Shown here: in pieces, positions 16,852 through 25,277 of the stretch
How the letters are laid out: every line of letters begins with the position of its first letter
How positions within the stretch are numbered: the stretch's first letter is position 1
DNA from: Candidatus Shapirobacteria bacterium GW2011_GWF2_37_20
GTDB taxonomy: Bacteria > Patescibacteriota > Microgenomatia > UBA12405
Reading direction: 5' to 3'
DNA length: 64,000 nt
Assembly: GCA_000989305.1 (NCBI GenBank)
Contig: LBTB01000002.1
Span: 40,411-104,410, forward strand
The notes under the pieces: model-generated
Told to the model about the DNA's origin: nothing
The model's database searches: none
What the model saw: only the letters and a program-made list of their open reading frames with translations
Position numbers and translations under genes: made by a program

Positions 16852-18105
16852 ATGATTCGCAAATTAAAAAATCTTTTATGGCACCTCCCACGAGGAATTT
16901 TTTGGAATCTATACTTTTCTTTCCCTAGTCGAAAATTAACCCTTATTGGCGTTACTGGTACGGACGGAAAAACAACCTGTTGTACTCTAATTCAAAAGCT
17001 TCTGGAAAATAGCGGTATCAAATGTGGCATTATCAGTACCATTAGTTCTCCCGGCCTACACACCACCAGTCCTGATCCAAAAATTCTTCAAAAAATATTT
17101 GACGATTACCAAAAACAAGGCTATACCCATGTCGTTTGCGAAGTTACCTCACACGCCCTGGACCAACATCGCTTCTGGGGTTGTCATTTTAAAAGTAGTT
17201 TAATTACCAATATTTCCCATGAGCATCTTGATTATCACAAAAATATAGACGCCTACATTGCCGCAAAGGCAAAATTATTTTCTCAATCCGATCTGGCCAT
17301 TCTCAATCGCGACGATCCTCATTATTTGGCCTTAAAAAAGCTGGTTAAAGTTCCCGTGACTACCTACGGCATTAAAAATAAATCTGATTTTACGGCCAAA
17401 AACATAAAAATTACTTCAGACTCTCTAAGTTTTAATATCAACCAACAAAAATTTGTCAGCGACAGTAACTATGAATATCAAATTTACAACATTCTTGCCT
17501 GTTACTCCATCTTTATTAAACTTAAACTCGACCCAAAAATATTTTCCGACACCATTACCAATTTCCCCGAAACTAAAGGACGACGCGAAATTATTGAAAA
17601 CAATCTTCACCTAAAAACCATCGTTGACTTTGCCCACACTCCAAACGCACTTTTTGTTACTCTCTCATCACTACGTCGGACCACTCAAGGAAAACTAATA
17701 GTTATCTTTGGTGCCACCGGTGGCCGGGATAAAACAAAAAGACCAATAATGGGAAAAAATGTCTCCCAATTGGCTGATGTTGCCATAATTACCGCCGACG
17801 ATACTAGAAATGAAAAAATCGAAGATATTAATCAGCAAATAATTTCCGGAATAGATCCTGGCAAATCTATTTTAGGCAACCCTTTAAATCCAGTTATTAC
17901 CAAAGCCCGCCGCTTTCATTATTTCAATGTTCCCAATCGACAAGATGCCTTTAACTTGGCCGTCAAAATCGCCAAAGCCGGTGATACCATCGTTGCTTGC
18001 GGAAAAGGTCACGAGACCTCTATTCTACACGAGAGCACTGAATATCCCTGGTCAGAAGCCGAAGCCTTTAGAACTGCTTTTCGCCTAAAAAACCAAAATG
18101 TATAA
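16852..18105 (+). CDS. murE: MurE-type Mur ligase (short N-terminus; DDTR specificity motif)
   Basis: GVTGTDGKTT, HTTSP, EVTSHALDQ, HEHLDYH, DFAHTP, GGRDKTKRPIMG, GKGHE. Confidence 0.9.
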   Translation: MIRKLKNLLWHLPRGIFWNLYFSFPSRKLTLIGVTGTDGKTTCCTLIQKLLENSGIKCGIISTISSPGLHTTSPDPKILQKIFDDYQKQGYTHVVCEVTSHALDQHRFWGCHFKSSLITNISHEHLDYHKNIDAYIAAKAKLFSQSDLAILNRDDPHYLALKKLVKVPVTTYGIKNKSDFTAKNIKITSDSLSFNINQQKFVSDSNYEYQIYNILACYSIFIKLKLDPKIFSDTITNFPETKGRREIIENNLHLKTIVDFAHTPNALFVTLSSLRRTTQGKLIVIFGATGGRDKTKRPIMGKNVSQLADVAIITADDTRNEKIEDINQQIISGIDPGKSILGNPLNPVITKARRFHYFNVPNRQDAFNLAVKIAKAGDTIVACGKGHETSILHESTEYPWSEAEAFRTAFRLKNQNV

Positions 18106-18697
18106 TCTAAAAAATAATTTGTCAATTGAAGAAAACTATTTGCAGGGTTATCTTCCCCAAAGAAATTCCCAAGACTCCTTTTATCAAGACGAAAACCATT
18201 CTTCTCGTTGTGATCTAAGCTTATTCCAATTATCTTCAGAGAACAGACGTATCATTAAAAAGACTGAAAATTTCACTTTTACCAAACTTCTTCTTTCAGA
18301 ATTTAACTACACCCCTCTTATTCAAAAACAAATTGTAGACTGGGTCAAAGAATTAGGATGGGATTTTCCAACCTCATCAATAAAAACCGTATTTACCAAT
18401 CATATTTTTAACTATCTATATATATGGTATGACCAAAACAAAGAAATTTGTGCCTACTCAATTTGTTATATTAATGAAAATTTTTCCCACATAGCCTATG
18501 TTTTTTATAATCCCAAATATACCCACAACGATTTGCCCATCCGACTTTCCCTGCAAGTAGTTACCGATAGTAACGACATGAAACTTAAATACTGTTATTT
18601 AGGCCGCTTTAACCCCAGTAATAAGCTTGGTTTTTATAAAAGAAACTTTCCGGGCTTCCAATATTTTACTCAGGGGACTTGGTTATCATATAATTAA
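18098..18697 (+). CDS. ATE/Bpt-like aminoacyl-tRNA-dependent transferase (GNAT fold)
   Basis: SRCDLSLFQLSSENRRIIKK, AYVFYNPKY, YCYLG, FYKRNF resemble the arginyl-tRNA-protein transferase C-terminal domain. Confidence 0.65.
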   Translation: MYNLKNNLSIEENYLQGYLPQRNSQDSFYQDENHSSRCDLSLFQLSSENRRIIKKTENFTFTKLLLSEFNYTPLIQKQIVDWVKELGWDFPTSSIKTVFTNHIFNYLYIWYDQNKEICAYSICYINENFSHIAYVFYNPKYTHNDLPIRLSLQVVTDSNDMKLKYCYLGRFNPSNKLGFYKRNFPGFQYFTQGTWLSYN

Positions 18698-18702
18698 CAA
18701 AT

Positions 18703-19992
18703 ATGCATATTTACCTTGTTGGAATTGCCGGTTCAATGACCGCCCCCTTGGCCATTGCCCTTCAAAAACAAGGCCACAAGGTCACCGGATCAGACCAAGA
18801 AAAAACCTTTCCTCCCTACCGGCAACAGCTAAAAAAAGCCAATATTTTAATTAATCAGACACCAATAAATTCTGAGATTGATTTGGCCATTATCGGCTCA
18901 TCATATTTATTCTTTAAAAAAACCAGAGAAGATTTCGAAGCCGTCAAAGCCCAAAAGATCCCCTACATTTCCGCCACTGAGTATCTTTCTAAAAACCTAA
19001 TCAAAGAAAATTCCATATTAGTTGCCGGCTCATATGGTAAAACAACCATTAGTGCCGCCCTTGCCCATCTTCTAAGCCAAGCCAAACTTAATCCTTCCTA
19101 CATGTTTGGTGGCCAAAGTCTTAATCGACTTGACTCCCTACACTTCTCCGACTCAACCTGGTCCGTCCTTGAAGCCGACGAATCAATCAACGGCCTCGAC
19201 ACCAAAGCAAAATTTCTTTATTATCCCGTTAAATATCTAATATTGACTAGTGCCCTCTGGGAACATAAAGAAAGCTATCGAAGCGATGCAAAAAACTTTG
19301 CCGCATTTTTAGAATTAGTAAAAAAAATACCCTCCGACGGTCTTCTGATATATAACCAGAACGATACTTCCATTTTGCCACTTCTTCCCCATGTCAAATG
19401 CCAAAAAATTGCTTACCAAAAAACTTCATTAAGCACTTCCTTAATCGGCAAATACAACCAAGAAAATCTTGGTGCCGTTGAAACCTTAGCTCAAAATATA
19501 AATATCTCTCCCCAAATTATTAAAAAATCCCTTTCCTCTTTTAAGGGAGTTAAAAGGCGTTTAGAACTTTGCGCTCAAGCAGGGGGGATAATATTTATCG
19601 ATGATTTTGCCCAATCAGCCAATAGAATCAAGGCGGCCCTTGAAGTCATCAAAAATACTTATCCCAAATCTCATCTTAAAGTTTTTTATGAAGCTCACGC
19701 CTCTTTTATGCAATATCGTTCTGGTGTAAAACAGCTCTGCTCTGTTTTTAATCTAGCTGATGAAACCGTCATTTTCCAACTCAAATTTAATTCAAAAATC
19801 AGCACCAAAGACAGAATTGTGGCCAAAGATTTCTTAGAAATTATTCCCCAAAGCCTTTACCTGCCCCTGGCAAGTGATGTCATAAAACATTACCGCAAAA
19901 CCCTTAAAAAGGGTGATATTTTAATTCATTTTAGTTCTGGTGGAGTTGAAGGGCAAAAAACTTTTCGAAAAATTATTAATTTATACAAATAA
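18703..19992 (+). CDS. mpl: MurC/Mpl-family ligase, closest in pattern to the murein peptide recycling ligase Mpl
   Basis: GHKVTGSDQEKTFPP, AGSYGKTT, EADE..KAKFLYY, FKGVKRRLE, DDFA; the GSD..xPP and KF.hY patterns are Mpl-like. Confidence 0.65.
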   Translation: MHIYLVGIAGSMTAPLAIALQKQGHKVTGSDQEKTFPPYRQQLKKANILINQTPINSEIDLAIIGSSYLFFKKTREDFEAVKAQKIPYISATEYLSKNLIKENSILVAGSYGKTTISAALAHLLSQAKLNPSYMFGGQSLNRLDSLHFSDSTWSVLEADESINGLDTKAKFLYYPVKYLILTSALWEHKESYRSDAKNFAAFLELVKKIPSDGLLIYNQNDTSILPLLPHVKCQKIAYQKTSLSTSLIGKYNQENLGAVETLAQNINISPQIIKKSLSSFKGVKRRLELCAQAGGIIFIDDFAQSANRIKAALEVIKNTYPKSHLKVFYEAHASFMQYRSGVKQLCSVFNLADETVIFQLKFNSKISTKDRIVAKDFLEIIPQSLYLPLASDVIKHYRKTLKKGDILIHFSSGGVEGQKTFRKIINLYK

Positions 19993-19998
19993 GAAATA

Positions 19999-21327
19999 AT
20001 GTCACGATACATAATCAACGGCGGTCAAAGCCTGAGCGGTGAAGTTTCTATCCGTGGTGCTAAAAATGCCGGCTATAAACAAATTATCGCCTCACTTCTC
20101 TCAGATAAGCCCAGTCACATCAACAACATTCCTCAAATTTCCGACGTTAAAATTACTCAAAGTATTGCCGAAAGTTTAGGCTCTCAAATAACCAGAACCG
20201 GTGAACACAGTTTAACTATTCATACTCCAAAATTTACCTCTTCAACAGTACCTCACGGTACCGGAGAAAAATCCCGAACCTCCTTTATTTTTGCCGCCCC
20301 GCTTTTAAGTCGAACTGGAATGGCCACCATTCCCACTCCTGGTGGAGACAAGCTCGGTGCCCGACCCTTGGATAGGCTTTTCGACTGCTTTTCCACCATG
20401 GGTATCAACACCGAACTCAAAGACGATCTAATGATTTTTAAAACCGATGGCATAAAAGCTACCCATTATGTTTTTAACAAACCCAGCCATACTGTCACTG
20501 AAGTTGTTGTTATGACCGCCGCCTTAGCCACCGGACAAAGTATTTTTGAAAATACTGCTCTTGAACCAGAAATTGACGATTTAATTTCCATGCTCAATTC
20601 TATGGGGGCCAAAATTCAGCGTTCTTCTCAAAATCCAAAAACTATCATCGTTGACGGAGTTCCTTCATTGTCTGGCACCAGCCATCAGGTAATTTCTGAT
20701 AGAAACGAAGCCATCACTTTTGCCTGTGCCGCATTGGCCACAAAAGGCTCTGTTAATATTCTCAGAACAGATCCCAAAATTATCAAAACCTTTTTAGATA
20801 CTGTTGAAAAAATGGGTGCCCAAATTGATAGGGGTAGTGATGAAGTTGCCGTCTCTTGGGTTAAACAATTAAAAGCGGTTGATATCGAAACCGGTCCCGA
20901 ACCAGGTTTTATGACCGACTGGCAGGCAATCTTTTCAGTTCTCTTAACTCAAGCCATCGGTGTTAGTAGTATCATCGAAAAAGTTTATCCTTCACGCTTT
21001 CAACACCTTCAATACCTGGAAAAAATGGGGGTTAAAACAGTATTGTTTAATCCTAAAATAGCCGACCCTTCCGCTTATTATGAATTTAACCCCGATACTG
21101 ATAAGCCCGAATATCTTCACGGCGTCAGAATATACGGACCAGTTAAGCTAAAACCTTCTCAATTTAGTATTAGTGATCTTAGGGCTGGTGCCTGTATAAC
21201 TTTGGCCGCCCTTACCGCTGAAGGTGAAAGTATTATCGATAATGTTGAATTTATTGAAAGAGGTTATGAAAAATTAGCCGAACGACTTTGCTCTTTGGGT
21301 GCTAATATAAAATATATCAAAACATGA
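19999..21327 (+). CDS. murA: UDP-N-acetylglucosamine 1-carboxyvinyltransferase
   Basis: GAKNA, PGGDKLGARP, EPEIDDL, PGFMTDWQ, DLRAGA, IERGYE. Confidence 0.95.
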   Translation: MSRYIINGGQSLSGEVSIRGAKNAGYKQIIASLLSDKPSHINNIPQISDVKITQSIAESLGSQITRTGEHSLTIHTPKFTSSTVPHGTGEKSRTSFIFAAPLLSRTGMATIPTPGGDKLGARPLDRLFDCFSTMGINTELKDDLMIFKTDGIKATHYVFNKPSHTVTEVVVMTAALATGQSIFENTALEPEIDDLISMLNSMGAKIQRSSQNPKTIIVDGVPSLSGTSHQVISDRNEAITFACAALATKGSVNILRTDPKIIKTFLDTVEKMGAQIDRGSDEVAVSWVKQLKAVDIETGPEPGFMTDWQAIFSVLLTQAIGVSSIIEKVYPSRFQHLQYLEKMGVKTVLFNPKIADPSAYYEFNPDTDKPEYLHGVRIYGPVKLKPSQFSISDLRAGACITLAALTAEGESIIDNVEFIERGYEKLAERLCSLGANIKYIKT

Positions 21328-22358
21328 TTCACTTATATCTTGGCCTTCTATTATTCTCCTTTCTGGCTACCAGCATTTTAGTCGTACCCTACATTAATCT
21401 TCTTTACCGACTTAAATTTCAGCGTCAAAAACAGTCCACCCTTGATTTTCAAAATCAAAAGACCCCCATCTTTGACAAATTCCACTCATTAAAAAGTGGT
21501 ACACCCGTTGGCGGTGGACTTCTTATCATTGTCACTGTTGTCATTCTTTTTGCTTTCCTGTTTCCCATGTTAAAAATGTCCCGTCTCTTTATTTCCAGTA
21601 ACTACCACCTAATCAATGAGTTGATCGTTATCTTTTTTACCTTCATAAGTTTCGGTCTTCTTGGTCTATATGACGACATTCTAAAGTTTTTTAACTTTAA
21701 AAAGTCCGGATTTTTTGGCCTAAGAATGAAATACAAATTAATTCTTCAGTTACTCTTGGCCACCGTCATTTCCAGCCTAATCTATTTTCAGCTGGGAATC
21801 AATTTTATCTATCTTCCTTTTGTAGGTGCTGTCAGTCTTGGATTATTCTTTATTCCAATTTCCACCACAATCATTGTTGCTTTTGCCAACTTTTTTAATA
21901 TCACCGATGGTTTAGACGGCTTGGCCTGTGGCACTTTGATGATTTCTCTTTTCGCTTTCTGGATTCTAGCTGGCACCTCCCTTGATACCCCCATCTCCCT
22001 CTTTTTATCCCTCTGGATCGGTTCTCTTATTGCCTTTCTTTACTTTAATGTCTACCCGGCTCGTATCTGGCTGGGAGACGTTGGTTCATTATCTTTTGGG
22101 GCCACCTTTGCTGTCATCGCTCTGCTTCTAGGAAAGGTTGTTCCTCTTTTTATTGTCGGGGCTCCTTTTATTATCGAAGGTATGACCAGTGCCATTCAAA
22201 TCTTTAGTAAAATCTATCTTCACAAAAAAATATTTCCCGCCGCTCCAATCCACCTCACTCTTCAAAAAAATGGCTGGGAAGAACCCAAAATTGTTTTTAG
22301 AGCTTGGCTAGCTGCTATTATTTTAGCTATTTTTGGACTATGGCTGGGACTAAATTAA
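21324..22358 (+). CDS. mraY: Phospho-N-acetylmuramoyl-pentapeptide transferase
   Basis: KSGTPVGGG, GLYDD, NITDGLDGLA, PARIWLGDVGS, APIH, WEEPKIV. Confidence 0.95.
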   Translation: MIHLYLGLLLFSFLATSILVVPYINLLYRLKFQRQKQSTLDFQNQKTPIFDKFHSLKSGTPVGGGLLIIVTVVILFAFLFPMLKMSRLFISSNYHLINELIVIFFTFISFGLLGLYDDILKFFNFKKSGFFGLRMKYKLILQLLLATVISSLIYFQLGINFIYLPFVGAVSLGLFFIPISTTIIVAFANFFNITDGLDGLACGTLMISLFAFWILAGTSLDTPISLFLSLWIGSLIAFLYFNVYPARIWLGDVGSLSFGATFAVIALLLGKVVPLFIVGAPFIIEGMTSAIQIFSKIYLHKKIFPAAPIHLTLQKNGWEEPKIVFRAWLAAIILAIFGLWLGLN

Positions 22359-22879
22359 GTGAATTACGTCAGGAAATTTTAAAATATATTGGCATCCCGT
22401 ACCATACCAATATCCCTAAGGTAATTTCTACTGAAAATGTTTTACTTGGTAAGGGCAATGCCAGGGAGATTGCCCTAAAAACAATTGAATTAGCCAATAA
22501 AAATAACCTAAAAATTCTAAATTTAAGTCCCCAACAAATCTATAATTTTCAAAAAAAGAATAAAATTGGCATTGATTGCTCCGGTCTGGCCTGTCATCTT
22601 CTTAATTTTTACTTTAATACCAAACTAAATGTTCGGCGCACCTCCGCCGACATGCTTAGCTCCGCCCCCTTATCAAAACAAATTGACATTTCCGACACCC
22701 AAACCGCCGACCTAATCCGACAAAAAGATGGTCACCACCTTCTCTTTGTTATCGAAAAAATTGGTGACAAAGTTGTCTATGTTGATTCTTCACGAAAGGG
22801 CAGGGGAGTACGCTATGGCGAATTCGACATCACTGACAAAAACTTCAAACACAACGGAGTTTTCAGATTAAATAGATAG
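22340..22879 (+). CDS. NlpC/P60-like cysteine peptidase
   Basis: YIGIPY and GIDCSG nucleophile motif, then ADLI...GHH; no signal peptide; ATG 22340 overlaps the mraY end. Confidence 0.7.
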   Translation: MAGTKLSELRQEILKYIGIPYHTNIPKVISTENVLLGKGNAREIALKTIELANKNNLKILNLSPQQIYNFQKKNKIGIDCSGLACHLLNFYFNTKLNVRRTSADMLSSAPLSKQIDISDTQTADLIRQKDGHHLLFVIEKIGDKVVYVDSSRKGRGVRYGEFDITDKNFKHNGVFRLNR

Positions 22880-22881
22880 GT

Positions 22882-23190
22882 TTATTTCTTTTCCCAGCGA
22901 TCCTTGTCTCTTTTTTTGTATTTATCCATTATTCTGTCAAAATGTTTGTCCAAATCAATATTAAGTGAATTAGCCAAGCATGCCAGAGTGTAGATGATGT
23001 CTGCCATTTCATCACCCAATTCCTGGGTTTCTTCAGATGGCTTTTTCTTTTTTGAACCAAAAAGATGATTTAACTCTCTTGCCGTCTCACCAACTTCTTC
23101 AACTAATCGAGCTAAAATCTCTAAAGGTTTAAAATAACCAACCTTGTACTGAGAAATCCATTCATCAACTTCTTTTTGAATCCTTTTCAT
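22882..23190 (-). CDS. MazG-like nucleotide pyrophosphohydrolase (YpjD-like)
   Basis: ARLVEEVGETARELNH and ELGDEMAD acidic motifs; KRDKDRW C-terminus. Confidence 0.88.
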   Translation of the reverse strand: MKRIQKEVDEWISQYKVGYFKPLEILARLVEEVGETARELNHLFGSKKKKPSEETQELGDEMADIIYTLACLANSLNIDLDKHFDRIMDKYKKRDKDRWEKK

Positions 23191-23354
23191 TATTTTTCCT
23201 CAATCAACTCCCGGTACCGAAGAGGGGTGGTTGAGATAATTTCCACTTCAGTTCCACATTCCTGACATTCTAAAATATCTCCAAGCATTGGGCTTTCACC
23301 TTTAATTTCCGCCTGGCAATCAGGGCAAAGAACTTTATTATTAGTATCTGGCAT
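23190..23354 (-). CDS. LysW-like small zinc-ribbon carrier protein (54 aa; not in ORF track)
   Basis: Hand translation MPDTNNKVLCPDCQAEIKGESPMLGDILECQECGTEVEIISTTPLRYRELIEEK; two CxxC pairs with LysW spacing; TAATG coupling to the MazG-like gene. Confidence 0.8.
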   Translation of the reverse strand: MPDTNNKVLCPDCQAEIKGESPMLGDILECQECGTEVEIISTTPLRYRELIEEK

Positions 23355-23388
23355 ATAATTTAGCTAAAATATAACTAATCACTATTAT

Positions 23389-24186
23389 ATGACACCACTA
23401 AGTAAAATCGATAATCTATATTTTAAACGTGAAGATTTAAATCCCACCGGCTCCGCCAAAGACAGAGCTCTACCCTTCCAGATTCAAAACTTACTAAATA
23501 ACGGCTTTAAATCCGCCGTTATTTCTTCAACCGGCAATGCCGCCATTTCCGCCACCTATTATTGTCAAAAAGAAAATATTCCCCTAACCATTTTTGTTTC
23601 TCCAAAAATCAATATCAACAAATTATCCCTTATAAAAGGCAATATCATCAAGTCTCTCAAACCAATCAGCGATGCCATCAAGTTTTCTAAAGCCAACCAT
23701 GCCTATCTTTTACGACAATCAACTGACCCCTCAGCTCAAGTAGGCTATGCTGAAATAGCCAAAGAAATATTAATTCAATTACCACAAATTACCAGCCTTT
23801 TTATTCCCGTTGGTAGTGGTACTACCTTACTGGGGATTGCCAAAGTCTTACCCAACAACGTTAAAATCTTTGCCGCCCAACCAGCCAGTAATCCAACTAT
23901 CTCTAGTGTTTTTGATCAGGATTACACACCAGAAACTCAAACCATTACCGATGCTCTTAGCGTAAAATATTTACCTCTTAAAACCGAAGTGATAAATGCA
24001 ATTAAATCACGCTATTCTTTTGGTATTGTTGTCAAAAATACTGACGCTATCAAATATTTAGATTTTGTTAAACAATTTGAAACCTCACCAGAGTCAGCCC
24101 TGACTCTAGCCGCCTACCATCAAATAAAAAATAAACCCGAAGTGGGGGATTATCCTGTTATTCTTTTAACCGGCACAAAACGCTAA
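23389..24186 (+). CDS. Fold-type II PLP-dependent enzyme (threonine synthase/cysteine synthase-like, minimal)
   Basis: KREDLNPTGSAKDR (PLP lysine), SSTGNAAIS, PVGSGTT, LLTG. Confidence 0.85.
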   Translation: MTPLSKIDNLYFKREDLNPTGSAKDRALPFQIQNLLNNGFKSAVISSTGNAAISATYYCQKENIPLTIFVSPKININKLSLIKGNIIKSLKPISDAIKFSKANHAYLLRQSTDPSAQVGYAEIAKEILIQLPQITSLFIPVGSGTTLLGIAKVLPNNVKIFAAQPASNPTISSVFDQDYTPETQTITDALSVKYLPLKTEVINAIKSRYSFGIVVKNTDAIKYLDFVKQFETSPESALTLAAYHQIKNKPEVGDYPVILLTGTKR

Positions 24187-25277
24187 TGGGCAATCTAGAG
24201 ACTTTATTAAAAAATTCCGGCTACAACTTTTTCTTTTTAGTTGTCGATAAATTCTTAGACATTAGTTTACCCCAACTTCCAAATTTTCAATCTCTGTCTC
24301 AAAAAAATCTGAAAATCAAAAATAGTGGTTTTCTTTTATCGCAGGGAAACATTCAAAATACAATTAAATCTGCCCCAAATCCGGCCATCATTCCTTTTAA
24401 GCCCTCAGCAAAAATTGAAAAAATATGTCAAAAAAATTCCTGGACCTTAGTTGCCAATCCCGCCAAAATTAATCGACTTTTAGAGAACAAAATCAAATTT
24501 TTTGAAACCTGTAACATAAATGGATTACCCATAGTTCCTGGAATTGTTGCCGAATTTAATCAAAATTCTTTTCAAAAAGCCCAAGAAAAATTTGGCAACT
24601 CTTTAGTTGTTCAAACCCATTTTGGTTGGGCAGGAAATAGTACCCATTACTTTGATAATTACGAAACAGCAAAAGCCGTTATCCCTAAAAACACTCTTGC
24701 CAAATTCTCTCCCTATTTAAAAGGATATTCCCTTCTTAATAATTGCTGTCTCACCCGCCATGGACTACTTCAAAGCCCTCCCGCCCTTCAGTACACCGGA
24801 CTACCCAACCTAACCCAAAACCCCTTTGCCACCGTTGGCCGTCAGTGGCCATCATTTGCTCCACTCGAAATCCAGGAACAGATTTACCAAATTACTGAAA
24901 ATTTTTCAAACAAAATACTTAAGCCCCTGAATTATCGTGGTTTTTTTGGTTTAGATTTTATTGTCTCTGACAATAAGGTCTACCTTCTTGAATGCAACCC
25001 GAGACTTACCGCTTCCTTCGCCTTTTATACTCAAATCGAAGTAAACAACAACCTCACCCCACTCTTTTATTACCACTTAGCTGAATTTATTAATCAAGAT
25101 TATTCAATTGATTTAAAGTTAGAACAACAACGCTTTCACCATCAAAATATTATCGGCTCTGAGATAACTCAAAGAAACAGCGACGGCCTCATCGTTAAAA
25201 AATATCACGATTTTAAGGTCTTCTCTACAAAAACAGATCCTGTCATTATTAACCAGGAAATTTTGTCAAAACTTTAG
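24186..25277 (+). CDS. ATP-grasp ligase of unknown specificity
   Basis: LENKIKF, VVQTHFGWAGNST, YRGFFGLDF, LLECNPR; coupled to the PLP gene (TAATG). Confidence 0.8.
   Translation: MGNLETLLKNSGYNFFFLVVDKFLDISLPQLPNFQSLSQKNLKIKNSGFLLSQGNIQNTIKSAPNPAIIPFKPSAKIEKICQKNSWTLVANPAKINRLLENKIKFFETCNINGLPIVPGIVAEFNQNSFQKAQEKFGNSLVVQTHFGWAGNSTHYFDNYETAKAVIPKNTLAKFSPYLKGYSLLNNCCLTRHGLLQSPPALQYTGLPNLTQNPFATVGRQWPSFAPLEIQEQIYQITENFSNKILKPLNYRGFFGLDFIVSDNKVYLLECNPRLTASFAFYTQIEVNNNLTPLFYYHLAEFINQDYSIDLKLEQQRFHHQNIIGSEITQRNSDGLIVKKYHDFKVFSTKTDPVIINQEILSKL

Follow-up and report, generated by a model that had tools for sequence, protein, structure and literature searches.

Why should a short protein resembling arginyl-tRNA transferases be encoded between two Mur ligase genes? 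In the window, a 64,000-nucleotide stretch of contig LBTB01000002.1 from Candidatus Shapirobacteria bacterium GW2011_GWF2_37_20, an ultra-small member of the Patescibacteria, the open reading frame at 18098..18697 (+ strand), whose product is referred to here as X, lies between the genes for MurE (16852..18105, + strand) and for an Mpl-like Mur ligase (18703..19992, + strand), in a dcw context that continues with murA and mraY (19999..22358, + strand). Peptidoglycan synthesis is taken to require MurD, and the tRNA-dependent wall enzymes known to us add branches, not backbone bonds. The comparative analysis reported here points to a route in which X and the downstream ligase probably take the place of both MurC and MurD.

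X is a conserved ATE_C protein that lacks the N-terminal cysteine domain

The coordinates bear out the tight packing described in the initial annotation of this locus. The start ATG of X lies inside the last codons of murE, which gives an overlap of 8 nt, and the TAA stop (18695-18697) is separated by 5 nt (CAAAT) from the ATG of the next Mur ligase at 18703. The 199-aa product matched Pfam ATE_C (PF04377) over residues 93-188 with 28.4 bits, which is above the cut-off of 25 and substantiates the ATE_C-like motifs noted earlier. ATE_C was the only match of X in the Pfam scan (E≤0.1), in which neither ATE_N (PF04376) nor FemAB (PF02388) was found, and seven NCBIfam PRK01305 arginyltransferase models scored 20-30 bits against cut-offs of 170-358, none of which was passed. 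The cysteine cluster typical of full-length ATE/Bpt proteins had been described as missing, and it is indeed absent: the four cysteines of X (38, 118, 123 and 166) are isolated and form no CxxC, and since the stop-to-stop frame of X is only 202 aa long, no cysteine domain is concealed upstream. PF04376 was likewise absent from 34 of 34 non-Bpt relatives scanned and present in four Bpt-like rows, and a CxxC within the first 100 aa was seen in 3 of 84 diverse relatives, at unrelated positions.

X is a genuine, conserved gene. Among 547 candidates, 530 relatives were recovered at E≤0.001; their automatic names say arginyltransferase, and the close relatives that carry organism names belong to Candidatus Shapirobacteria. 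A profile search with the X family returned 231 cluster representatives at E≤0.001, and among the best 150 of these the canonical ATE_N+ATE_C proteins appeared only near the bottom. In a FastTree phylogeny the X clade was separate from the four Bpt-like rows.

A few records connected with the family are worth mentioning. The Shapirobacteria gene order also occurs in many records labelled uncultured Gammaproteobacteria and in one labelled Methanoperedens; these records appear to be mislabelled or their contigs wrongly binned. A single record of 809 aa (P0169) combines PPDK_N and PEP-utiliser domains with an X homologue and is possibly an assembly chimera. By language-model features, a mostly viral cluster of ~197-aa proteins, 17% of them with ATE_C, resembles X (rank 3). 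Plasmids were searched for relatives of P0201, and none were found.

The predicted fold is closest to that of ATE1

Structure prediction and comparison had been proposed as a check on whether X has a GNAT fold at all. The AlphaFold model of X (pLDDT 95.2) has a predicted double-GNAT fold of the ATE1 type, and its best structural match was human ATE1 (Z 16.3, rmsd 2.9 Å, 196 of 199 residues aligned), which ranked above all acetyltransferases. The next matches were KlAte1 (Z 14.5), MprF (14.4), FemX (12.2-12.3) and the L/F-transferase (8.6), and Foldseek with the same model also placed ATE1 first. The placement comes from fold searches, as PDB sequence searches with X or a narrow profile returned nothing usable; the best PDB sequence match of the broad X profile was a GNAT acetyltransferase, 3d8p (E 6e-4).

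Seven residues (G17, R37, R51, G169, Y180, K181 and W195) were invariant in all 84 diverse relatives of X. A two-step alignment via the Bpt-like protein P0254 pairs K181 with K419 of human ATE1 and R51 with K92, a mapping obtained by counting residues by hand with a one-residue offset assumed. According to the accessible text of PMC11283454, the K419A substitution impairs ATE1, and K92 sits on a tRNA-facing helix. X and the Bpt-like proteins have in common a conserved basic helix, SSENRRIxxK, and the motifs YxLG...YK...W. Other hallmarks of ATE1 are missing. Its GFRR motif (R56/R57) is not present in X, and G.RR was seen in 1 of 84 rows; R56/R57 have been proposed to bind acidic N-termini, a role that is doubted in the accessible text of PMC11283454. 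The Arg-pocket residue E387 of ATE1 aligns with a variable small residue in X (V154), and X is without the zinc cysteines described in the accessible part of PMC10115844. Taken from the sequence and the predicted model, X likely acts as an aminoacyl-tRNA transferase, yet it is not a member of the Bpt/ATE1 group.

The downstream ligase is the constant partner of X

Conservation of the neighborhood, another check proposed in the initial annotation, was examined in 115 loci, and X stays with an Mpl-like ligase in 110 of them. The X-type ligase was located ≤900 nt downstream of X in 80 of 80 close loci, 13 of 16 class loci and 17 of 19 loci from other classes. The corresponding counts for murE upstream of X were 79/80, 10/16 and 3/19, and the idea that X belongs to murE was rejected on the last of these figures. 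The constant partner of X is the downstream ligase rather than murE. Natural X-ligase fusions were found in two separate cases, P0121 (a 7-member cluster) and G569, and the distance correlation between X and the ligase was 0.81 over 31 loci, or 0.75 with mraY controlled for.

X stood apart from the ligase in 5 of 35 distant loci. Family f39 was considered as a counter-example and rejected: G041 and G087 carry the X-type ligase on other contigs, and G066 has X with no ligase assembled. A Bacteroidota-labelled branch of X exists outside mur operons. Of seven metagenome loci of a distant branch, two have X next to a dipeptide-epimerase-like gene of the enolase superfamily, two have it next to murE, and three have neither neighbor. 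The two loci with dipeptide-epimerase-like neighbors are L166:3730-6750 and L167:1854-3732, and one of them also has DUF1611; the pair of DUF1611 and an enolase-superfamily gene presumably recalls the D-glutamate catabolism of DgcN/DgcA.

Two observations concern the other Mur genes of this genome. MurE, which is over the TIGR01085 cut-off, has DDTR where E. coli has DNPR, as is common to the Shapirobacteria rows, and residue 3 may not be meso-DAP. The genes murF and ddl are outside the dcw cluster, on opposite strands (L081:7355-9450, G000:C4).

The partner ligase partly resembles Mpl in motifs and phylogeny

The name Mpl-like ligase, as first given, is borne out in part by the motifs and the tree but not by the family cut-offs. 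The ligase of this locus scored 195 bits with the murC model TIGR01082 (cut-off 335) and 147 bits with the mpl model TIGR01081 (cut-off 388.7). All 38 X-linked ligases formed one clade (SH-aLRT 99), apart from the MurC of Patescibacteria, and this clade, which was found here only with X, grouped with E. coli Mpl with support of 91 and 99 in two quick trees. The AU test against grouping the X-linked ligases with MurC gave p 0.039, on a quick tree and for a group named after an earlier tree had been seen. The Mpl-type motifs YPP and KF..Y were each present in 36 of 38 X-linked ligases versus 0 and 1 of 25 CPR MurC proteins, whereas the MurC motifs PH..S/TR and GAG were present in none of the 38 versus 19 and 23 of the 25. 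The AFFDKRSK loop and the AHH and PRSNT motifs of Mpl are altered in the X-linked ligases. The best PDB match of the ligase profile was Mpl (3hn7), and Foldseek gave a tie between MurC and Mpl.

In a panel of 80 genomes, 11 of 12 X-bearing and 0 of 68 X-lacking genomes scored at E<1e-140 with the ligase profile, which had been built from X-linked ligases, some of them from the panel genomes themselves. The best score among the 68 X-lacking genomes was 2.5e-116, compared to 4e-143 or better for the X-linked ligases.

Another ligase (L139:6985-8388, genome G017) falls in the Mpl clade, scores over the cut-off for murC and has retained the H..TR motif, which the X-linked ligases have lost; its genome has MurD and MurL and is without X. 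Because this Mpl-clade ligase exists beside MurD and MurL, clade membership alone is no proof of peptide ligation, and the protein is possibly an intermediate between MurC and the X-linked ligases. The ligase at 18703..19992 is a predicted dipeptide:UDP-MurNAc ligase. Mpl itself is described in the accessible part of PMC3060825 as a recycling enzyme that accepts L-Ala-D-Glu weakly (Table 3), with the natural enzyme ~190-fold slower on L-Ala-D-Glu than on the tripeptide, at a higher substrate concentration.

No murD was found in genomes that carry X

The genome under study, which is 96% complete, contains exactly three Mur-ligase middle domains, and these belong to MurE, MurF and the X-linked Mpl-like ligase; contig C4 carries ddl. 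In a class sample of 301 genomes, X was carried by 33; murD (TIGR01087, called at E≤1e-40) was present in none of these 33 but in 226 of the 268 X-lacking genomes, one of the 226 positives (G068) being flagged unpublished. Neither X nor a murD match at this threshold was found in 42 of the 301. A phylum sample of 401 genomes provided 19 further X-bearing genomes from other classes, none of which had murD over the cut-off (best E 2.7e-26). Taken together, none of the 52 X-bearing genomes (33 from the class and 19 from other classes), which represent 16 families, yielded murD. A phylum sample of 201 genomes, 11 of them with X, had murD in 159 of its 190 X-lacking members. Within family f4, murD occurs in 10 of 19 genomes, and the single X-bearing genome is without it. 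A family-level Fisher test gave p 3e-4 (f1-f30), with kin not independent; all samples consist of draft genomes whose relatives are not independent. Nine weak broad-profile matches (E 1.6e-5 to 9e-4) were excluded from the 52; eight of them proved to be FemAB proteins and one another GNAT protein without ATE_C, and seven of the nine sit in murD-bearing genomes.

MurE and MurF are retained, and MurE was over the cut-off in 5 of 5 tested genomes where it is unlinked to X. An Asp/Glu racemase turned up in 1 of 22 X-bearing genomes, compared with 11 of 24 that have a canonical murD. None of the 52 X-bearing genomes gave MurL, for which 28 X-lacking genomes yielded 10 strong matches. No known source of D-Glu was found in the X-bearing genomes, where there were weak enolase-superfamily matches only (3 of 5). 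MurL-like epimerase genes do occur in many murD-bearing Patescibacteria without MurI (e.g. L139:9185-12330), and a single 834-aa frame at G009:C11:15103-17592 has both MurL-like and MurD matches, an apparent fusion.

A carrier module lies downstream of the mur genes

A four-gene module occupies positions 22340-25277. It consists of an NlpC/P60-like protein in which Cys/His are conserved and no signal peptide is evident (22340..22879, + strand; the ORF opens at 22304 and the likely start is ATG 22340), an antisense LysW-like zinc-ribbon carrier of 54 aa that ends in EEK (23190..23354, - strand; PF21344 41.5 bits, cut-off 27), a fold-type II PLP enzyme (PALP) closest to threonine synthase or serine dehydratase (23389..24186, + strand), and a weakly PRK06524-like ATP-grasp ligase (24186..25277, + strand). 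The C-terminus of the carrier was Lys in 81 of 83 pattern hits, with the endings EEK or EGK. Directly downstream of the carrier there is a MazG-family gene (22882-23190, - strand), which did not cluster with ORFs of 80 related loci.

The carrier module accompanies either X or a divergent MurD. In family f37 the module shares an operon with MurC and the divergent MurD, without X, and the ATP-grasp gene was present in 6 of 6 tested; genome G352 has X and the ligase, and the whole module is absent. The module is therefore separable from X. The candidate explanation that the ATP-grasp ligase replaces MurD was rejected on these same cases, as f37 has the ATP-grasp ligase together with MurC and the divergent MurD, and G352 has X without it. 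Fusions of the ligase with NlpC were seen in G382 and G439, and of the ATP-grasp ligase with NlpC in G663. The module plausibly supplies stem position 2 to either route, and it possibly supplies D-Glu.

Discussion

MurD forms the bond between the amine of D-Glu and the carboxyl of stem residue 1, and MurE needs UDP-MurNAc-dipeptide. UDP-MurNAc-Ala has no free amine to which an aminoacyl-tRNA transferase could add Glu, so the one way for such an enzyme to form this bond would be to pass residue 1 to the Glu amine, and an amine acceptor of the Glu type is the kind that ATE1 and Bpt use. A dipeptide made off UDP-MurNAc would in turn need a peptide-accepting ligase, and a pair of X and such a candidate ligase is what is seen here. 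We consider it probable that the two proteins replace MurC and MurD in this manner. X would transfer stem residue 1 (probably L-Ala, the likely donor by convention) from aminoacyl-tRNA onto the alpha-amine of glutamate, either free or held on the LysW-like carrier, and the Mpl-like ligase would then attach the dipeptide to UDP-MurNAc. The use of tRNA, the donor residue, glutamate as the acceptor and the ligation of a dipeptide are what we infer. The basis is the predicted fold, and the conserved basic helix and YK lysine, the coupling and fusion with the ligase, the exclusion of murD, and the retention of MurE and MurF.

A more elaborate version that involves the carrier is offered tentatively. 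In a large group of Patescibacteria without MurC and MurD, Glu might be loaded on the C-terminal Lys of the LysW-like carrier, where the PLP enzyme would invert it to D-Glu and X would add residue 1 from aminoacyl-tRNA; the product would then be released by the NlpC/P60 protein and ligated to UDP-MurNAc by the Mpl-type ligase. The acceptor is likelier to be glutamate before its attachment to UDP-MurNAc, so the activity could escape an assay that offers no acceptor other than UDP-MurNAc-peptide or lipid II.

Of the other explanations, salvage is unlikely. These symbionts would import host wall peptides, which NlpC/P60 would trim to L-Ala-D-Glu and the ligase would recycle, with X doing some other tailoring. 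This would account at once for the absence of MurD, MurI and MurL, and it agrees with the recycling role given to Mpl in the accessible part of PMC3060825 and with the ligase-NlpC fusions. However, it leaves the coupling and fusion of X to the ligase unexplained; G352 keeps X and the ligase but without NlpC, NlpC sits with MurC and a MurD-like gene in family f37, and none of the 68 X-lacking genomes reached the scores of the X-linked ligases. It is also rather unlikely that X acts in the manner of Fem/MurM and adds a branch to the side chain of residue 3, on UDP-MurNAc-peptide or lipid II, with murD loss a separate, co-inherited event. The double-GNAT fold is shared with FemX, the X profile weakly matches FemAB proteins, and X is translationally coupled to murE in Shapirobacteria. 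Yet separate FemAB genes were present in 5 of 5 tested X-bearing genomes, this one included, the fold of X is nearer to ATE1 than to FemX, 16 of the 19 distant loci no longer have murE linked to X although the link to the ligase persists in this set, and no reason is given for the lack of overlap with murD in 52 genomes. The proposal of the initial annotation, that X aminoacylates a peptidoglycan precursor, is thus supported in its direction by the fold and by the absence of aat and clpS, but the analogy to cross-bridge enzymes is not the best reading.

Improbable, in our judgment, is a role for X that does not depend on tRNA, whether as an acyl-CoA GNAT enzyme (for example, one acylating glutamate before racemisation) or as a non-catalytic partner that alters the specificity of the ligase. 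Several relatives match Acetyltransf_1/6/7, 3d8p was the top PDB sequence match of the broad profile, and one distant locus is beside DUF1611 and an enolase-superfamily gene. Against this, the full-length structural match to ATE1 beats all acetyltransferases, the basic helix and the YxLG...YK...W motifs are those of Bpt-like proteins, and an acetyltransferase would not form the missing peptide bond. Very improbable is N-degron tagging like that by Bpt or ATE1 with an incidental dcw position, for all that ATE_C is over its cut-off, ATE1 is the closest fold and the automatic names say arginyltransferase. X has no Zn/Fe-S cysteines, no GFRR and no Arg-pocket Glu, and it is found fused to a Mur ligase. 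Linkage of its homologues to aat or clpS had been named as a sign against a wall function; in the X-bearing genomes, which were the ones searched, aat and clpS were each found in 0 of 52, with controls positive in 4 and 5 of 14.

If X and the ligase do replace MurC and MurD, then at least 16 sampled families of Patescibacteria would form the first stem peptide bond from charged tRNA without these two enzymes, and the apparent pathway hole in X-bearing genomes would be filled. The ATE/Bpt fold would gain a small-molecule role in primary metabolism, Mpl would become a biosynthetic enzyme rather than a recycling extra, and many automatic arginyltransferase labels would need correction. No literature that describes X, the murD gap or the carrier module was found in open sources, and an earlier mention in subscription papers or supplements is possible; the accessible part of PMC6744442 does not cover the X system.

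Comparison with known systems

X shares with ATE1 and Bpt the fold, the R..F..S...R helix, YxLG, the YK lysine and the terminal W, and it is predicted to share an aminoacyl-tRNA donor and an acceptor amine on an acidic residue. It differs from them in the absence of ATE_N, the CxxC cluster, GFRR and the Arg-pocket Glu, in scores far under the family cut-offs, and in its mur-operon context in genomes where aat and clpS were not found. FemABX and MurM are likewise double-GNAT aminoacyl transferases of peptidoglycan synthesis. In contrast to them, X is much shorter, has no FemAB Pfam match and coexists with FemAB genes; Fem proteins branch finished stems, and X is predicted to form the backbone bond between residues 1 and 2.

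The X-linked ligase has the YPP, KF..Y, DDFA, EP and S(S/N)GG motifs of Mpl and apparently its position in the tree, and the acceptance of preformed peptides by Mpl, including L-Ala-D-Glu, is predicted for it as well. Unlike Mpl, it appears to be the sole MurC/Mpl-type ligase of its genome, so it is predicted to be biosynthetic and not an extra enzyme for recycling. In the MurD2/MurL route L-Glu is ligated and then epimerised (MurL corresponds to model NF041275). That route is a known deviation at stem position 2, and MurL-like genes are present in other Patescibacteria, but it keeps a MurD-family ligase and MurC, and none of the 52 X-bearing genomes showed it. The tail of LysW is EDWGE, with a glutamate end. 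The module described here resembles the LysW/LysX systems in bringing together a zinc-ribbon carrier, an ATP-grasp ligase and a peptidase, and differs from them in that its carrier ends in Lys and the module is separable from X. A precedent for the chemistry proposed for X is DhpH-C, which makes L-Leu-L-Ala(P) from Leu-tRNA, that is, a dipeptide from aminoacyl-tRNA and a small amine acceptor; according to the accessible text of PMC12945691, DhpH-C/PacB is FemX-like rather than ATE-like and belongs to secondary metabolism, and it is likened to X here by description only.
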